This document shows positions 298-50,581 of a stretch of 64,000 bases of DNA, in pieces. The stretch's first letter is position 1; each line of letters begins with the position of its first letter. The stretch is from Escherichia phage DK-13, in sequence record MT611523.1; one strand, 5' to 3'. Position numbers and translations under genes: made by a program. The notes below the pieces were generated by a model that saw only the letters and a program-made list of their open reading frames with translations, was not told where the DNA came from and made no database searches.

Positions 298-3200
298 ATG
301 ATGAGTGTTAAAGCCCCTTATGTAACCAGCTTACGGATTGATAAACTATCTGCTAACCAGGTTAGCATAAAATGGGATAATGTTGGCGCCAACTTTTATT
401 ATTTTGTTGAGATTGCTCCGACAAAAGAAAATGGTGTTGCTATTCCAGAAGAAAATCTGTTATGGAGGAATTTAGGTTATACTCCAGACAATGAATGGTT
501 CGAACAAGATTTTATTCGTCCAGTATCATTTTACAAAATGCGTGTTGCTGTTGCAGCAATGGGTTTTGAACAATCTGATTGGGTTTATACCGAAGAATTT
601 GAAACCTTTGCAACTAACGCATACACATTTGAACACATGCGTGAGTTTACATTAACAAATAAATTCATCGAAGAAAAATTCACAAACAATAACCAGGCTT
701 ATATCAACTTTAATAATGATGCAATTATGGCATCGCTGATGTCTGAAGATTTTAGCTTTACTCCTGCTTATTCTCATTTGTCTTCAATTTCAAACTATGT
801 ATTAAAAGAAGACCAATACCATGAAATTCAGGGTAGTATTCAGCCGGTGTGTAACGATGTTAATCGTACGATGATTGCTGAACTCGGTGGTGTACTGTAT
901 TTGTTTGAACGATTCCAGACAACTGTCAAAGTCTCCAATGATAAAGGGCAGAACTGGTATTATGTAAAATTGTTTAATGACCGTATCGGTAACCCAGTAT
1001 CGCGCACAATTTATTATCAATCAGATACGACAACTTATGTACTCGGATATGACCGAATTTTTTACGGTCGTAAATCAAGTGACATAAGATGGTCTGCTGA
1101 TGATGTTCGATTCAGTTCTCAGGATATAACATTTGCAAAAATTGGTTCGGATATCAATCTCGGATTTGATATTGAAATATTTGGCACATACGCAAGACTC
1201 CCGGCATATATCTCAACAATTGCCGAAGCAATTACTACGACCGATTCCATGATTTACGTTGCTGGCCGCGACCGTGTATACAAAGCTAAATCTTCTGATG
1301 CTCCAATTGATAACGACCCTAACTCCCCAACATTCGGTGAAAAATTATTTGAAGCTGGATATAGCACAATAAGCGGCAATCCAAAAGCTGTTTGTTACAA
1401 GATGGATTCAATTGACGGTGAAGTATTTGCATTAATCACGGGTGAAGTAAAGGAAGAACGCCAAGACCCGACTAAGCCTGAAAACGTTGTCGATTCATTA
1501 TCAAAGGGCGTTTATAAATTAAATACCGATACCGATACATGGACACGAGTTTTTGGTAATACAGAGGATGAACGTCGCCGTATTGAACATGGTTACACAA
1601 GCATGTCAACTGATGGAATTGAACTTTTTATCAGTTCAAGTAACTTCCGTTATTCCGTTGAGCCAGATACCGAACTCCCTACTAAGTATCCTGAAGAAGT
1701 TAACGAAGCAGTCAAATATGTGTATGATGAACAATGGATACATGACAAGCATTATTTGATGATGAGTTTTAGGTCAAATAAAGATTCAGGTTGGGAAGAG
1801 TTTAAACCTGGACGTATGTCATATTACGCTGAACCGTTCTTTAACTGGTCTCGCCGTGATGATACTCGTTGTTGGATTACCACATCAGACAGAGCTCTGG
1901 TTGTATATAATGACATGCTGTATCAAAAGATTATCGATACCTTTGGTGGTTCATCCCCTGAACGTATTGTACACGAATACTGGAATAAAGGTCAAGTAAA
2001 AGTTACTTCTCCTAACATCGAATTCAATGGCTTTAAAAAATATGCCTCGGGTATTATGTTACATAAAAATACTGGTGAGCTTATTGGTTATTTTGAATTT
2101 GACTATCGTATGCGTGATGAAGTTAGATTAATCTGGAAACCGAAAGAAGTTATGTTCACTGCAGAATTACAGAACCAGGAACATGATATTCCATGGACCC
2201 CGGATAATGATGAACAAGAGAAAGACCCGGACTTGCGTCCTCTTTTAACAAAGATGGTTCCGGATAGTTATTTGCTCCAGGATAGCAACTTCGAAAAATT
2301 CTGTGAATATTATTTGCAGTTTATCAGTGATGGCTCTGGCACATATTATAACAACCTTTTGAACTTGATTCGCAACCAGTACCCACGCGAGGAAGATGCA
2401 TGGGAATACCTTTGGAGTGAAATGTACAAAAGAAACATATATTTGTCAAAGACCAAGCGTGACGAAGTAGTTCGTTTCTTTGAAGCAAGACAGTCTGATT
2501 TTTGGGCAACCAAGGGGACTGAAGCATCCTATAAGTTTTTATTCAAATTGTTATATAATGAAGACGTTGAAATCGATATTGAATCCAAGAACGGAACCGA
2601 GTATGACATAATTGTCGAATCTGATAATATCAGCGAAGATATTGTTGGGCAAACAATTTACACACCAACCGGCCGCAGTAACGTTACCTATATGGAGCGT
2701 GACTACAAACAGGGTAAATTGAGATGGCGTATCACGATTCATAACTTGCTTGGTCGCTTTATTGTTGGGCAAGAAATTAAATCCGAAAGGACTTCCTTTG
2801 AAGGCATGATTGTTCAGGGCGTTCGCGGGAAAGAATTGCTTAGCAACAACATCGATTATATCAACCGAAATCGTTCTTACTATGTAATGACCATTAAATC
2901 AAGTCTCCCGACATCTCGTTATCGTAATGACGTATTGCGATTTGTTCATCCGGTTGGATTTGGATTTGTTGGAATTACATTATTGACAATGTTTGTTAAT
3001 GCTGGTCTGTCATTAAAACATACAGAAACCATTATCAATAAACTGAACAACTATCGTTGGTCGTCGGGTATTCCGTCAGAATGGTGTGACCGTATTGCAG
3101 TTATTGGAGCCGATGGAAACATTGAGCATAATGCTGTTACAGGCGAAGCAGTATATAATATTGCTCCTAACGCAGGTTTACCGTTCCCATTACCGGCAGA

Positions 3201-3396
3201 TTATGATGCCGAAAACGATTTTTCAGATTTTCATGGGACTCTCCCGTCTGAACGTCGTAAAAAATACAGTCCATTGTTTGACCAGTCTGCCGTGACTTTT
3301 GCGAACTGGCGCAATTTGGTTAATCAACGTCTTAAGGATGATATTGGTAATCCACGCGACCCGAAAGACCCATCACAGGTAAAGGTAAATGAATAA
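298..3396 (+). CDS. gp7: Baseplate wedge protein gp7
   Basis: 1032 aa from ATG 298, same length as T4 gp7; N-terminus MMSVKAPYVTSLRIDKLSANQV matches recalled T4 gp7; RBS AAGGA upstream. Confidence 0.9.
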   Translation: MMSVKAPYVTSLRIDKLSANQVSIKWDNVGANFYYFVEIAPTKENGVAIPEENLLWRNLGYTPDNEWFEQDFIRPVSFYKMRVAVAAMGFEQSDWVYTEEFETFATNAYTFEHMREFTLTNKFIEEKFTNNNQAYINFNNDAIMASLMSEDFSFTPAYSHLSSISNYVLKEDQYHEIQGSIQPVCNDVNRTMIAELGGVLYLFERFQTTVKVSNDKGQNWYYVKLFNDRIGNPVSRTIYYQSDTTTYVLGYDRIFYGRKSSDIRWSADDVRFSSQDITFAKIGSDINLGFDIEIFGTYARLPAYISTIAEAITTTDSMIYVAGRDRVYKAKSSDAPIDNDPNSPTFGEKLFEAGYSTISGNPKAVCYKMDSIDGEVFALITGEVKEERQDPTKPENVVDSLSKGVYKLNTDTDTWTRVFGNTEDERRRIEHGYTSMSTDGIELFISSSNFRYSVEPDTELPTKYPEEVNEAVKYVYDEQWIHDKHYLMMSFRSNKDSGWEEFKPGRMSYYAEPFFNWSRRDDTRCWITTSDRALVVYNDMLYQKIIDTFGGSSPERIVHEYWNKGQVKVTSPNIEFNGFKKYASGIMLHKNTGELIGYFEFDYRMRDEVRLIWKPKEVMFTAELQNQEHDIPWTPDNDEQEKDPDLRPLLTKMVPDSYLLQDSNFEKFCEYYLQFISDGSGTYYNNLLNLIRNQYPREEDAWEYLWSEMYKRNIYLSKTKRDEVVRFFEARQSDFWATKGTEASYKFLFKLLYNEDVEIDIESKNGTEYDIIVESDNISEDIVGQTIYTPTGRSNVTYMERDYKQGKLRWRITIHNLLGRFIVGQEIKSERTSFEGMIVQGVRGKELLSNNIDYINRNRSYYVMTIKSSLPTSRYRNDVLRFVHPVGFGFVGITLLTMFVNAGLSLKHTETIINKLNNYRWSSGIPSEWCDRIAVIGADGNIEHNAVTGEAVYNIAPNAGLPFPLPADYDAENDFSDFHGTLPSERRKKYSPLFDQSAVTFANWRNLVNQRLKDDIGNPRDPKDPSQVKVNE

Positions 3397-22353: not shown

Positions 22354-23172
22354 ATGCTTAAAGAACAACTCATTGCTGAAGCTCAGAATATCGATGCTTC
22401 CGTTGCTCTCGATAGTATTTTCGAATCAGTTAATTTGTCCCCGGAAGCGAAAGCTACCTTCGGCACTGTATTCGAAGCTACCGTCAAGCAACACGCCATC
22501 AAACTGGCAGAATCTCACATTCACGCCATCGCTGAAAAAGCTGAAGAAGAAGTCGAAAAGAATAAAGAAGAATCCGACGAAAAAGCAGAGAAAAAACTGA
22601 AAGAATCTGCAGCTAAATTCCTGGACCACGTTGCTAAAGAATGGCTTGCTGAAAATAAACTGGCTGTCGACCGTGGCATTAAAGCTGACCTGTTCGAATC
22701 CATGTTCACCGGCATGAAAGAACTGTTCGTTGAGCACAACGTTGTTGTTCCGGAAGAATCTGTTGATGTTGTTGCAGAAATGCAGGAAGAACTGGCTGAA
22801 CAGAAAGAAGAAACCGCTAACCTGTTCGAAGAAGTTTCTAAGCGTGATGCTTATATCAATTATGTCCAACGTGAAGTTGCGTTGACTGAAGCAACTAAAG
22901 ACCTGACTGAATCTCAGAAAGAAAAAGTTGGTTCTCTGGTAGAAGGCATGGAATACTCTGATGCATTCGGTACCAAAATTGGCGCTATTGTTGAAATGGT
23001 TAAAGGTCAGGTAGAACCTACCGACAAACCAATCACCGAAGCCGCTATAAATAAAAATGTAGACGATGCTGCGGCACTGAATTACATTTCAGAAGCAGTT
23101 GAAGAAAAAGGCGCCAAGCCTACCCTGTCCTTCGCGGACTTGTCTGCTCTCGCAGCATCACGAATTTCTTAA
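22354..23172 (+). CDS. gp22: Prohead core scaffold protein gp22
   Basis: 272 aa, Glu/Lys/Ala-rich helical protein; synteny. Confidence 0.85.
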   Translation: MLKEQLIAEAQNIDASVALDSIFESVNLSPEAKATFGTVFEATVKQHAIKLAESHIHAIAEKAEEEVEKNKEESDEKAEKKLKESAAKFLDHVAKEWLAENKLAVDRGIKADLFESMFTGMKELFVEHNVVVPEESVDVVAEMQEELAEQKEETANLFEEVSKRDAYINYVQREVALTEATKDLTESQKEKVGSLVEGMEYSDAFGTKIGAIVEMVKGQVEPTDKPITEAAINKNVDDAAALNYISEAVEEKGAKPTLSFADLSALAASRIS

Positions 23173-23193
23173 TTTAATAAGGTTATACAACAC

Positions 23194-24753
23194 ATGAAAA
23201 AGAATGCATTAGTTCAAAAATGGTCCGCTCTGCTGGAAAACGAAGCTCTTCCGGAAATCGTTGGTGCTTCTAAACAAGCTATCATCGCTAAAATCTTTGA
23301 AAACCAGGAACAAGATATTCTGACCGCTCCTGAATACCGTGACGAAAAAATCTCTGAAGCATTTGGTTCTTTCCTGACCGAAGCTGAAATCGGTGGTGAC
23401 CATGGTTATGATGCTACCAATATTGCTGCTGGCCAGACCTCTGGTGCAGTAACTCAGATTGGGCCGGCAGTTATGGGTATGGTTCGTCGTGCTATCCCGC
23501 ATCTGATTGCGTTTGATATTTGTGGCGTACAGCCTCTGAACAACCCGACTGGCCAGGTATTTGCACTGCGTGCAGTATACGGCAAAGATCCTGTCGCTGC
23601 TGGCGCTAAAGAAGCTTTCCATCCGATGTATGCTCCGAACGCTATGTTCTCTGGTCAGGGCGCTGCTCAGACTTTTGAAGCACTGGCTGCAAGCAAAGTT
23701 CTGGAAGTTGGTAAAATTTATTCTCACTTCTTCGAAGCAACCGGTTCTGCACACTTCCAGGCTGTTGAAGCTGTAACTGTTGATGCTGCTGCTACCGATG
23801 CTGCTAAACTTGACGCTGCTGTTACCGCTCTGGTTGAAGCTGGTCAGCTGGCTGAACTGGCTGAAGGTATGGCTACCTCCATCGCCGAACTGCAAGAAGG
23901 TTTTAACGGTTCCCAGGATAACCCGTGGAACGAAATGGGCTTCCGCATCGACAAACAAGTTATCGAAGCTAAATCCCGTCAGCTGAAAGCAAGCTACTCC
24001 ATCGAACTGGCACAGGACCTCCGCGCTGTTCACGGTATGGATGCTGATGCCGAATTGAGTGGTATTCTGGCTACCGAAATTATGCTGGAAATCAACCGCG
24101 AAGTTATCGATTGGATTAACTACTCCGCACAGGTTGGTAAATCTGGTATGACCAACACCGTTGGCGCTAAAGCTGGTGTGTTTGACTTCCAGGACCCGAT
24201 TGATATCCGTGGTGCTCGTTGGGCTGGTGAAAGCTTCAAAGCTTTACTGTTCCAGATTGATAAAGAAGCCGCTGAAATCGCTCGTCAGACCGGTCGTGGT
24301 GCAGGTAACTTCATCATCGCTTCCCGTAACGTAGTTAACGTGCTGGCTGCTGTTGATACTTCTGTTAGTTATGCTGCTCAGGGTCTGGGTAAAGGTTTCA
24401 ACGTTGACACCACTAAAGCTGTGTTCGCTGGTGTTCTGGGTGGCAAATACCGTGTCTATATCGACCAGTATGCTCGTGCAGATTACTTCACCATCGGTTA
24501 CAAAGGCGCTAACGAAATGGATGCTGGTATCTACTACGCACCATATGTTGCACTGACCCCGCTGCGTGGTTCTGACCCGAAAAACTTCCAGCCGGTTATG
24601 GGCTTCAAAACCCGTTACGGTATCGGTATCAACCCGTTTGCTGACCCTGCTGCTCAGGCTCCGACCAAGCGCATTCAGAACGGCATGCCGGACATCGTTA
24701 ACAGCCTTGGCTTGAACGGTTACTTCCGCCGCGTATATGTTAAAGGAATTTAA
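23194..24753 (+). CDS. gp23: Major capsid protein gp23
   Basis: 519 aa; position, length and high codon bias consistent with T4 gp23. Confidence 0.95.
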   Translation: MKKNALVQKWSALLENEALPEIVGASKQAIIAKIFENQEQDILTAPEYRDEKISEAFGSFLTEAEIGGDHGYDATNIAAGQTSGAVTQIGPAVMGMVRRAIPHLIAFDICGVQPLNNPTGQVFALRAVYGKDPVAAGAKEAFHPMYAPNAMFSGQGAAQTFEALAASKVLEVGKIYSHFFEATGSAHFQAVEAVTVDAAATDAAKLDAAVTALVEAGQLAELAEGMATSIAELQEGFNGSQDNPWNEMGFRIDKQVIEAKSRQLKASYSIELAQDLRAVHGMDADAELSGILATEIMLEINREVIDWINYSAQVGKSGMTNTVGAKAGVFDFQDPIDIRGARWAGESFKALLFQIDKEAAEIARQTGRGAGNFIIASRNVVNVLAAVDTSVSYAAQGLGKGFNVDTTKAVFAGVLGGKYRVYIDQYARADYFTIGYKGANEMDAGIYYAPYVALTPLRGSDPKNFQPVMGFKTRYGIGINPFADPAAQAPTKRIQNGMPDIVNSLGLNGYFRRVYVKGI

Positions 24754-24775
24754 TCCTAGATTAAGTTAAATAAAA

Positions 24776-24800
24776 AGGGACCCTTGAGGTCCCTTTCTTG
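24776..24800 (+). terminator. Hairpin AGGGACC-CTTGA-GGTCCCT after gp23
   Basis: 7-bp stem followed by T-rich tract. Confidence 0.7.
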
Positions 24801-24803
24801 TTT

Positions 24804-25085
24804 TCATACCATACCATTTAAATGAACTTCTACCCGGCGCTTGATGAGGTCTCTGAAGTTAACATTGTTTTCTTGAAGTTTCAACCAGTTACCATTTTTA
24901 TCTTTAGTGTGAGTAGAATAATTACCATTCCACCAGAAATCAGTGTCATATGCTAAGTTTTCATATTTTTTAACTAGTTTGTTCAGAGCATTACCATTAA
25001 CACCATTTGGGTATTTGTTGACCAAGGCAATAACTTCAATTTCCAGATTTTTAAAGGTGTTCAGAAGGAAAGTTGCTTTGTTCAT
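24804..25085 (-). CDS. Hypothetical protein (93 aa) on opposite strand between gp23 and gp24
   Basis: ORF with its own upstream early-type promoter; occupies the slot where T4 carries segD. Confidence 0.5.
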   Translation of the reverse strand: MNKATFLLNTFKNLEIEVIALVNKYPNGVNGNALNKLVKKYENLAYDTDFWWNGNYSTHTKDKNGNWLKLQENNVNFRDLIKRRVEVHLNGMV

Positions 25086-25109
25086 TTTTAAACTCCAGGT
25101 TTTGTTTGT

Positions 25110-25150
25110 TAACTCAGTATGGAATCATTATGTCTTATCTTAATCTGGTT
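25110..25150 (-). promoter_or_regulatory. Early-type promoter upstream of the 93-aa minus-strand gene
   Basis: Minus strand reads GTTTAC-N18-CATAATGATTCCATAC. Confidence 0.45.
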
Positions 25151-25162
25151 GTAAACAACTTT

Positions 25163-25170
25163 TATAAATA
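25163..25170 (+). promoter_or_regulatory. Late promoter TATAAATA upstream of gp24
   Basis: Exact octamer. Confidence 0.6.
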
Positions 25171-25195
25171 AAGTATATCACAAAAGGAAATAGCA

Positions 25196-26476
25196 ATGGC
25201 TAAAATTAACGAACTCTTAAAAGAGTCGACCACGACCACAAGTTCTTCGATTGGTCGACCGAATCTAGTAGCTTTAACCAGAGCTACGACTAAACTGATT
25301 TACACCGATTTAGTAGCACAACAGCGCACATCCCAGCCACTGGCGGCATTATACGGTCTTAAATACCTGACTCAGCAAGATGAATTATCTTTCCAGACTG
25401 GTGCAACCTATTCTGGTGCAGTATCAGCAAAAGACCGTGCGACCATTCCGGTTTTTGTTGCTGGCACAGTTTATGCTAAAGACGATTTGTTCCAGTTTGA
25501 AAATGTAGTTTATAAAGCGCTGGTAGCAACTCCATTTGCTGGAGCAACGGGCGATGAGTATGACCAGCTTCAAGAAGCGATGGTTAAATTGACCATCCGT
25601 ATTATGTCCGAAGCTGCAATCACCGAACGTTTTGAAGGACCGCAGGAAGTCGAAATTGCCGAAGCTAAATTTTTGGTTAACAAATGGAATGCTCCGGTTA
25701 AATCTCGTAAGCTGAAAAGCACTGTTACAGTGGAACTGGCCCAGGACCTGGAAGCAAACGGTTTTGACGCTCCAAACTTCCTGGAAGACCTGTTAGCTAC
25801 CGAAATGGCTGATGAAATTAACAAAGATATCCTGCAATCCCTGGTAACAGTTTCCAAGCGTTATAAAGTTGCTGGGCTCTGTGATGATGGCCTGATTGAC
25901 CTGTCTTATACCAACTCTCCGGAAGCTTCACGCAAGTTGTACGAAATCATGTGTGAGATGGTCTCCCATATTCAGCGGGCAACTTCTTACACCGCAACAT
26001 ACGTTGTTGCTTCTACGCGTGTAGCTGCAGTTTTGGCTGGTTCCGGTTGGTTGAAGCATCGTCCACAAGATGAGAAATATCTCTCCGATAATGCGTATGG
26101 TTTCTTGGATAATGGTCTACCGCTTTATTGCGATACGAACACTCCATTTGATTATGTGACTGTTGGTGTTAAAGAAGATTTCGGTGGGAAAGAGATGGTG
26201 GGTTCACTGTTTTATGCACCTTATACCGAAGGTCTTGACCTGGAAGACCCTGAACATGTTGGTTCGTTCAAAGTTGTCGTTGACCCAGAAAGTTTGCAGC
26301 CGTCTATTGCATTAATGGTTCGTTATGCGTTAGCAGCTAACCCTTATACAGTGACTGCTGATGATAAACAAGCTCGTATTATTGATGCAACAAATATGGA
26401 TTTGATGGCAGGACGTTCAGATATGTCTGTACTGCTTGGTGTGAAACTTCCTAAAGTTCTGACTGAAATAAATTAA
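25196..26476 (+). CDS. gp24: Capsid vertex protein gp24
   Basis: 426 aa; late promoter upstream; synteny. Confidence 0.9.
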   Translation: MAKINELLKESTTTTSSSIGRPNLVALTRATTKLIYTDLVAQQRTSQPLAALYGLKYLTQQDELSFQTGATYSGAVSAKDRATIPVFVAGTVYAKDDLFQFENVVYKALVATPFAGATGDEYDQLQEAMVKLTIRIMSEAAITERFEGPQEVEIAEAKFLVNKWNAPVKSRKLKSTVTVELAQDLEANGFDAPNFLEDLLATEMADEINKDILQSLVTVSKRYKVAGLCDDGLIDLSYTNSPEASRKLYEIMCEMVSHIQRATSYTATYVVASTRVAAVLAGSGWLKHRPQDEKYLSDNAYGFLDNGLPLYCDTNTPFDYVTVGVKEDFGGKEMVGSLFYAPYTEGLDLEDPEHVGSFKVVVDPESLQPSIALMVRYALAANPYTVTADDKQARIIDATNMDLMAGRSDMSVLLGVKLPKVLTEIN

Positions 26477-26478
26477 AA

Positions 26479-26503
26479 AGGGACCTTCGGGTCCCTTTAT
26501 TTT
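26479..26503. terminator. Bidirectional hairpin AGGGACC-TTCG-GGTCCCT between convergent gp24 and rnlB
   Basis: Stem-loop flanked by A-run and T-run. Confidence 0.7.
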
Positions 26504-27510
26504 TATTCACTAACTAATGCAATCCAAACATGTCTTAATGTTTCTCTTACATTTGTGATGAGTTGCTTTTTAACTTCAACAGGATTTTCCGTCAGGGATA
26601 ATTCAAGACCTTCGCGCCCCGCTTCTTCCAGAATATCTTGGACTGTTAACCCCATTACCTTTCCAAAATCCTTCGGTGTTACTTCCCCAATTTTACTGAT
26701 AACATTGTTGATACGGTTAACAGTCACATAATCAGTGAAATTCCACAGTAAATCCATATCATTTTGGCTCAGAACCACTGCAGCCTTAATAGGCTTATCA
26801 GACTTTTTCTTTTCACTGAATTTAGAGTTCTTACATTTAATCGCTACACGCTCGCCGTTAGGTAACCATGCAGGAACATCAGGTTTTAATACAAATCCTT
26901 CAGCAGTGAATACTTTACCTTCCGCCTTTGCATCAAAATCAGTGGTATTTGCTGTAGTCAAACCTGCGTTATCCACTGTAAAATTGTAATCAGGGACAAC
27001 AGAATCCAGGTCATTAGGGAGCTTAATTAATTCTTCAAAACTACCTGTAGCCAGGCGCGGTGCAACCTTAAACTTATGGATAATACAGAATGCTTCCATC
27101 AAGGTGTCAGTCAGGACGGATTCAAAACCATCTTCTTTAGTAACGCGGATATCAAATACATAAAAATCTTTATCACCGTAATCCACATTCTTCTGGATAC
27201 CTGCCCCGGCAAACTCACCATAAATCTGGTATGCCTGGTAATTAATATCCTGCAAAAGTTTCTGCACAGATTTAATAGAATCAGCATAATTCTTTAATAC
27301 AATTTCATAACCATAGAAATCTTCTGCAGGCAGGATAGGTCCAGTGCGTTTCGCACATGTCACATTGTCTTGTTCAATGATTAATGAAAAGTTGGTACCA
27401 TGAATCTTCTCGCGAGCTACCCATTCACCGCTGGTGAAGCCTTGCAGGCGAATCTTTTCAATGAACTTGTTGTTATAGTGATTTTCAAGGCTGTTGTATT
27501 TCTTAAACAT
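26503..27510 (-). CDS. rnlB: RNA ligase 2 (Rnl2)
   Basis: 335 aa; nucleotidyltransferase lysine motif REKIHGTNF; convergent with gp24. Confidence 0.85.
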
Positions 27511-27599
27511 AATCTCTCACTTTTGATGTTATAAATATCATTATAAATTAGACCCATTATACTTTCTTTCTCTGAAAGGAATTAATAGTCACAAAGGGG

Positions 27600-27640
27600 T
27601 CTAGAACCATTATACCACAATTTTATTTGAAGCAAAAAGG
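27600..27640 (-). promoter_or_regulatory. Middle (MotA-box) promoter upstream of rnlB
   Basis: Minus strand reads TTGCTTCA-N13-TATAAT-GGTTCTAGACCCC (approximate coordinates). Confidence 0.5.
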
Positions 27641-27641
27641 G

Positions 27642-27905
27642 TCAGAATTTTACATACAGCATTGGCTTGGCTTCTTGCCAATCATAATTCCAGGTAAATG
27701 ATGTAAATTTTTCTGCTCGCAGAAAATCAGATATCTTCGCGCGGTTTCCTTCTTCATACTCTTTTTCAGAAACTGCCATATTAACAGCATCTTTGCCATT
27801 CTCGGCGGCGGCAATAGCCACTTTGCGAAATATAGCAATAAAGTCATTTGCAACTTTATCTTGGGATTCTTTTGCGATTTGACGTAGTTCTTCTGCGAAT
27901 GTCAT
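27642..27905 (-). CDS. Hypothetical protein (24.2-like position)
   Basis: 87 aa ORF, synteny only. Confidence 0.45.
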   Translation of the reverse strand: MTFAEELRQIAKESQDKVANDFIAIFRKVAIAAAENGKDAVNMAVSEKEYEEGNRAKISDFLRAEKFTSFTWNYDWQEAKPMLYVKF

Positions 27906-50521: not shown

Positions 50522-50581
50522 TTTGTTTTCCTCATGTGTTGATGAAATTCATTATACACCATCCATGGTGAAAGTAAACAC

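Follow-up and report, generated by a model that had tools for sequence, protein, structure and literature searches.

A stretch of 64,000 nucleotides from Escherichia phage DK-13 (sequence record MT611523.1), hereafter the window, was used for the analysis. The window belongs to a T4-like phage of the genus Gaprivervirus, and the 801 bases around the gene described here are 99.6-99.9% identical to Escherichia phage P479, Shigella phage SP18 and Escherichia phage vB_EcoM_RZ. An earlier sequence-only reading of this DNA had placed a 93-amino-acid open reading frame (ORF) on the minus strand between the gp23 terminator and the gp24 late promoter; this ORF, which starts with ATG, was found exactly as claimed, between a bidirectional terminator and the gp24 late promoter. 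The features of the locus, in window coordinates, are as follows.

22354-23172, plus strand: gp22
23194-24753, plus strand: gp23, the major capsid gene
24772..24798, both strands: bidirectional intrinsic terminator, GGGACC-loop-GGTCCC between A and T runs
24804..25085 (stop codon included), minus strand: gene for the 93-amino-acid protein, equal to SP18gp189 and a member of PHROG 6003
25093..25096, minus strand: Shine-Dalgarno sequence GGAG, 7 nt upstream of the ATG
25127..25156, minus strand: sigma-70/T4-early-type promoter, with -35 GTTTACA at 25156-25150, a 17-nt spacer and -10 CATAAT at 25132-25127
25163-25170, plus strand: gp24 late promoter TATAAATA, 25 nt before the gp24 ATG
25196-26476, plus strand: gp24, the vertex gene, with its ATG at 25196
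after gp24, minus strand: rnlB

The same reading gave the unit as 24804-25150. The ORF part of that span was correct; at the other end, 6 nt of the -35 hexamer were left out, and the unit extends to about 25156.

On the plus strand (24774-24796) as on the minus strand (24798-24772), the terminator stem is a GC-rich hairpin followed by a T run. It scores as an intrinsic terminator, and the bidirectional hairpin would end gp23 on the plus strand and the small gene on the minus strand. In an Rfam scan no family reached threshold, and only sub-threshold terminator-like matches were obtained. A second bidirectional terminator is present between gp24 and rnlB (window 26477-26498), and its stem (AAAGGGACC...GGTCCCTTT) is almost the same as that at 24774-24796. 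The gp24 gene itself varies in copy number, with one copy in the window, SP18 and C6, and two in tandem in EAWsc9, JS98 and UP19 (window 25196-26476; locus L002, 3098-5662; locus L007, 1-2399; locus L004, 4246-6169). The match to the window at the nucleotide level ends about 100-180 nt into gp24 in several close relatives (query coverage to 704-774 of 801), and this break just inside gp24, next to the gp23-gp24 slot, suggests a recombination boundary.

The promoter proposed for the ORF in the sequence-only reading, GTTTAC-N18-CATAAT, is present. The 18-nt spacing is counted from GTTTAC; written as TTTACA-N17-CATAAT, the site matches the consensus at 10 of 12 positions, its -10 being CATAAT and not TATAAT. 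GTTTACA-N17-CATAAT is the best sigma-70-like site in the region 23000-27800, and it shows the sequence features of a T4-type early promoter, namely the -35 element, a spacer of 17+/-1 nt, a -10 with A2 and T6, and an A/T-rich sequence (TTTATAAAAG) upstream of the -35. Transcription is predicted to start near 25120 on the minus strand. The -35 and the gp24 late promoter are arranged back-to-back on opposite strands, seven bases apart, and the A/T-rich region upstream of the -35 overlaps the late promoter.

Analysis of the whole 64-kb window revealed four occurrences of GTTTAC-N17-19 followed by a 5-of-6 match to TATAAT, all on the minus strand, compared with 0.76 +/- 0.86 in shuffled sequences; 17 of the 20 TATAAATA late-promoter motifs are on the plus strand. 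Early-promoter matches beyond chance, together with the strand bias of both motifs, indicate that the promoter call fits the strand logic of the genome and is not a product of chance. The three other early-promoter matches (GTTTAC-N17/18-TATAAT-like) are at window positions 50579, 46977 and 40940, again on the minus strand only. Within the first 35 kb, nearly every TATAAATA motif lies on the plus strand.

Alignment of the upstream region from Gaprivervirus, Dhakavirus and Mosigvirus found the late promoter, the GTTTACA -35 and the 17-nt spacing to be invariant, while the spacer sequence drifts and the -10 ranges from CATAAT to TACTAT; GGAG is retained in the aligned relatives. The -35 and the spacing are kept in four genera, including the Seg-occupied slots of T4 and TH15. 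As the sequence-only reading had stated, T4 carries segD here, antisense in the equivalent gp23-gp24 slot. In T4 (locus L012, NC_000866; 3735-3790, minus strand) TTTACA-N17-TATTAT is found directly upstream of segD. The TATTAT is preceded by TGA, an extended -10-like TGn, and the site lines up with the early promoter conserved in the slot. A review in 2010 found no segD-specific promoter identifiable (PMC2988022). In contrast to that review, the alignment shows a conserved, putative sigma-70-type promoter ahead of T4 segD, which agrees with the early RNA in the 2022 omics data; those data place T4 segD among the early genes by RNA and among the middle genes by protein, and they include a detection of SegD protein (PMC9697503 supplements). 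These data support the view that the conserved slot promoter fires early, which for the window gene would follow from promoter orthology with T4 segD and from the match to consensus.

The ORF belongs to a small but well-conserved protein family. Its product shares every residue with SP18gp189 and the vB_EcoM_RZ homologue (100% identity), and the HMM search proposed in the sequence-only reading gave a full-length match to PHROG 6003 (JS98 orf173, which is EpJS98_gp173, and RB69ORF188c), with residues 1-90 aligned to profile positions 1-90 of 90 (E=3.6e-47). PHROG 6003 is annotated as a hypothetical protein of unknown function. Homologues were identified by tblastn in 237 phage records, almost all of them from Gaprivervirus, Dhakavirus or Mosigvirus, with identities of at least 90% in Gapriverviruses, about 62% in Dhakaviruses (JS98 orf173, JS10, Bp7, IME08) and about 37% in Mosigviruses, whose copies (PhAPEC2 and others) are annotated as similar to RB69ORF188c. 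The possibility raised in that reading, that the ORF is not conserved or is disrupted in close relatives, does not hold, as the ORF is intact in the 237 records. Every Tevenvirinae copy inspected (SP18, EAWsc9, C6, JS98, UP19 and PhAPEC2) has the antisense position between gp23 and gp24, and a 55%-identical copy on a metagenomic T4-like contig is also antisense between these genes. The same slot is thus used across the three genera and the metagenomic contig at 37-100% identity. No material difference in length, antisense position or promoter and terminator arrangement was found between the window gene and SP18gp189, JS98 orf173 and RB69ORF188c. The gene already carries annotation in GenBank and PHROGs, so that its sequence is not new, and a full-text literature search for RB69ORF188c found no papers.

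Comparison of substitution rates (Nei-Gojobori) gave dN/dS values of 0.06-0.11 within Dhakavirus and of 0.1-0.3 between genera, the latter with synonymous sites near saturation. Values well below 1 indicate that selection acts on the amino-acid sequence, and on these comparisons the ORF is almost certainly a real protein-coding gene under strong purifying selection and not a spurious one.

Deeper searches showed the family to be tiny. A word-index deep-homology search returned three proteins, and an exhaustive HMMER scan of 1.8 billion representatives gave nine matches, representing about six genuine family clusters; the latter scan found no longer homologue and no fusion to another domain. 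With only about six cluster representatives among 1.8 billion, the family offers no co-occurrence or domain-fusion clue to function. One metagenomic protein (P0005) is a Dhakavirus-type copy that runs out of frame after residue 44, through a frameshift or a sequencing error; in another (P0006, 160 amino acids) the last ~35 residues are a family fragment fused to unrelated sequence, probably an assembly chimera. A 34%-identical homologue occurs in ABPH49 (locus L006, MH533020; 3001-3267), among small hypothetical genes on the same strand. ABPH49 is a Vequintavirinae-type genome labelled as an Acinetobacter phage, and this is the sole non-Tevenvirinae copy among the matches listed in the phage collection. 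It shows that the gene can apparently move, if rarely, with horizontal transfer at least once.

Analysis of the product revealed a protein of 93 amino acids and 10.9 kDa with 17 asparagines, 13 lysine and arginine residues, three tryptophans and no cysteine. All family members are basic (pI 9.2-9.6; about 9.4 for the window protein), hydrophilic and cysteine-free. Modelling with AlphaFold2 from eight family members gave a confident structure (mean pLDDT 87.4, pTM 0.72), which consists of a helix at residues 3-24, a tight turn with an invariant N-G-N motif, a helix at 31-47, a β-hairpin at 52-71 rich in tryptophan, tyrosine and asparagine, and a helix at 77-92. According to this model the product would be a soluble three-helix bundle with an aromatic, asparagine-rich β-hairpin and no catalytic motif.

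The sequence-only reading had recognised no nuclease motif in the protein, and our searches agree: no Pfam nuclease domain and no similarity to SegD were detected. The protein has no match in Pfam (E<=1) or NCBIfam, and none of the PADLOC-DB defence and anti-defence profiles matched at E<=1. A Pfam search with eight members at E<=10 gave scattered noise only (DUF5380, DUF4859, KIP1 and putAbiC, each in one or two members), with the GIY-YIG catalytic domain absent across the eight. A PDB profile search returned only designed three-helix proteins at E>0.03, and BFVD contained one unnamed viral protein of 88 amino acids with 30% identity, presumably a family member. In EAWsc9 (locus L002, PQ341120; 2705-2986) the same 93-amino-acid ORF is annotated as 'glycosyl hydrolase family 25'. 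This label was rejected, as no GH25 or cell-wall-binding match was found in eight members (Pfam, E<=10), the protein has only 93 amino acids and its modelled fold is a bundle of helices; the label is probably a mistake of automatic annotation and could spread further.

Comparison of the gp23-gp24 slot among the BLAST matches listed, which sample the Tevenvirinae genomes, revealed four natural states: the ORF alone; the ORF with a SegD orthologue downstream; SegD alone (T4, TH15); and an empty slot (TH57). The promoter geometry is kept in all the occupied states. Carriers with no adjacent SegD are the majority among the records listed; those inspected were SP18, EAWsc9, PhAPEC2, JS98 and C6. 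In Dhakavirus UP19 the ORF and a seg gene are both present, the seg ATG following 3 nt after the ORF stop codon, and comparison with JS98 revealed that seg is cleanly inserted between the last codons of the ORF and the terminator. Match coordinates place the ORF next to seg also in JK45, LF82 phages and 04086. In Gaprivervirus TH15 the small ORF is gone, and a SegD orthologue (72.5% identical to T4 SegD) is found behind GTTTACA-N17-TATAAT. T4 segD therefore resembles the window gene in its slot, its antisense orientation, its aligned -35 with 17-nt spacing and its bidirectional terminator by gene 23, whereas the proteins are unrelated: SegD has 223 amino acids, and the ORF product has 93, lacks a GIY-YIG motif and shows no similarity to SegD that could be detected; some Dhakaviruses carry the two kinds of gene in tandem.

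In TH57 (locus L009, MT446422, an UNVERIFIED record; 3155-3235) the slot contains only the terminator and a truncated late-promoter box, and gp23 is nearly identical between TH57 and TH15. The junction of the deletion removed the early promoter and left the gp24 late-promoter box as AATAAATA in place of TATAAATA. With its terminator of the TH15 type, TH57 appears to have arisen by deletion from an ancestor that carried seg. The ORF is missing from T4, TH15 and TH57, so the small gene is dispensable and any function it has is conditional. Seg has been added cleanly downstream of the ORF (UP19) or has replaced it (TH15), which marks the ORF as the resident and Seg as the invader. On these comparisons, the simplest history would be that the ORF is an old resident in this Tevenvirinae branch and that SegD genes have repeatedly exploited the promoter and terminator of the slot. 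This polymorphism fits the established view of free-standing homing endonucleases in T4-like phages (PMC2988022).

Four other explanations of the gene were weighed. The sequence-only reading had suggested that the ORF may be cargo left by a past mobile insertion, that is, delivered by, or a decayed piece of, a homing-endonuclease cassette once at this position. The comparison of gp23-gp24 content across relatives that it called for showed that SegD-type genes do occupy the slot in T4, TH15 and several Dhakaviruses, but the ORF looks resident and not inserted, and in UP19 it is the seg gene that is plainly the inserted piece. That the ORF is missing from some close relatives and has one homologue in an unrelated phage lineage, and so has moved horizontally at least once, is in keeping with mobile cargo; its occurrence at the same position in three genera down to 37% identity, under strong purifying selection, is not. 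The protein contains no nuclease domain and shows no similarity to T4 SegD (BLASTP E=3.1) or to UP19 Seg (E=5.1), and the check for flanking repeat footprints gave only chance matches of 9-20 nt. Nor is the composition skewed: the GC3 of the ORF (0.35) equals that of gp24 and rnlB, and its GC content is low (33.7%) because it is rich in asparagine and lysine codons. The mobile-remnant explanation thus appears largely refuted and is highly unlikely. A role as a Seg-related factor, in which the product would be a regulator, partner or immunity protein for SegD, for example shielding gp23-gp24 from cleavage or modulating homing, would suit a basic protein that could bind DNA and that forms one apparent operon with SegD in UP19, JK45, LF82 phages and 04086. 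This too is very unlikely, given that most carriers among the records listed have no adjacent SegD and that T4 and TH15 have SegD and no ORF; neither gene depends on the other.

All Tevenvirinae carriers inspected have the gene in the middle of the head-gene block, a location that may point to a role in the capsid, and a head-morphogenesis accessory kept between gp23 and gp24 to assist capsid or vertex assembly was considered. Against this, the ORF is opposite to the late genes in orientation and has a sigma-70 early-type promoter, and its strand lacks TATAAATA, reading TATAAAAG there. It is also missing in TH57, TH15 and T4, although TH57 and TH15 have nearly identical gp23, and one homologue occurs away from head genes in a non-T4-like phage; a head function is accordingly regarded as highly improbable. 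Least probable of all is a purely DNA- or RNA-level function, in which the divergent promoter and the antisense transcript would regulate gp24 or gp23 and the ORF would be incidental. The invariant overlap between the A/T-rich region upstream of the early promoter and the gp24 late promoter, and the retention of the promoter whatever the cargo, would suit this explanation, but the dN/dS values well below 1 point to selection on the amino-acid sequence, the terminator would halt the transcript before gene 23, TH57 has neither promoter nor cargo, and no Rfam family reached threshold.

The reality of the gene and the architecture of the slot are near-certain. The locus is best described as a self-contained antisense expression slot within the late capsid operon. 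Most likely, host RNA polymerase with sigma-70 would start at GTTTACA-N17-(C/T)A(T/C)(A/T)AT soon after infection and produce a transcript with a leader of about 35 nt and the 282-nt gene, which would stop at the bidirectional hairpin; this stop would keep early antisense transcription out of gene 23. The slot would also serve as a docking site for SegD-type GIY-YIG homing endonucleases, with SegD joining as a downstream operon partner or replacing the ORF.

Most small early proteins of T4-type phages are host-takeover or anti-defence accessories that act by stoichiometric binding. By analogy with these, the product, which would be made in the first minutes of infection, may bind a partner stoichiometrically, most likely a host protein or nucleic acid, and may be a host-takeover or anti-defence factor. 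With about even confidence, we interpret the ORF as a real accessory gene, not essential to the phages of the Gaprivervirus/Dhakavirus/Mosigvirus branch, that is expressed early and encodes a host-directed binder; that its product is an early accessory binder without enzymatic activity and aimed at the host is our best guess, made with low confidence. The basic pI would suit binding to phage DNA or RNA just as well. A bolder proposal, which we regard as speculative and rather unlikely, is that the protein founds an early phage effector family whose fold has no natural structural relative and which neutralises a specific E. coli/Shigella defence or housekeeping protein, the slot being a 'safe harbour' where the ORF and SegD compete or cooperate for one promoter. 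A link between the family and arabinosyl-hmC DNA modification was considered and rejected: Gapriverviruses are reported not to have the known modification enzymes (PMC8056088), and one homologue is in a Vequintavirinae-type phage.

The host-directed binder can be compared with small early accessory proteins of related phages. In RB69, early novel ORFs were predicted behind early promoters (Nolan et al. 2006, PMC1524935), and in Mosigvirus AV110 early host-reprogramming proteins were screened among T4 homologues only (bioRxiv 10.64898/2026.09.14.751387), so that the ORF family, which has no T4 homologue, was omitted from that screen. Like these proteins, the window gene is small, has a GTTTAC-type promoter, is dispensable and lineage-restricted and contains no enzymatic domain; unlike them, it is located inside a late structural block and not in an early hyperplastic region.

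T4-like phages have hundreds of conserved hypothetical early ORFs, of which this gene is one, and its significance is in that sense modest. Its product, well folded according to the model and strongly constrained, is an orphan protein that could be included at little cost in screens for host targets or anti-defence activity, and the slot might offer a safe place for insertions when these therapeutic phages are engineered. For the biology of the group, the locus represents a compact and reusable antisense slot amid the most highly expressed late operon, with early and late promoters back-to-back and a bidirectional terminator, and its four occupancy states constitute a natural experiment on how free-standing homing endonucleases may borrow promoters.
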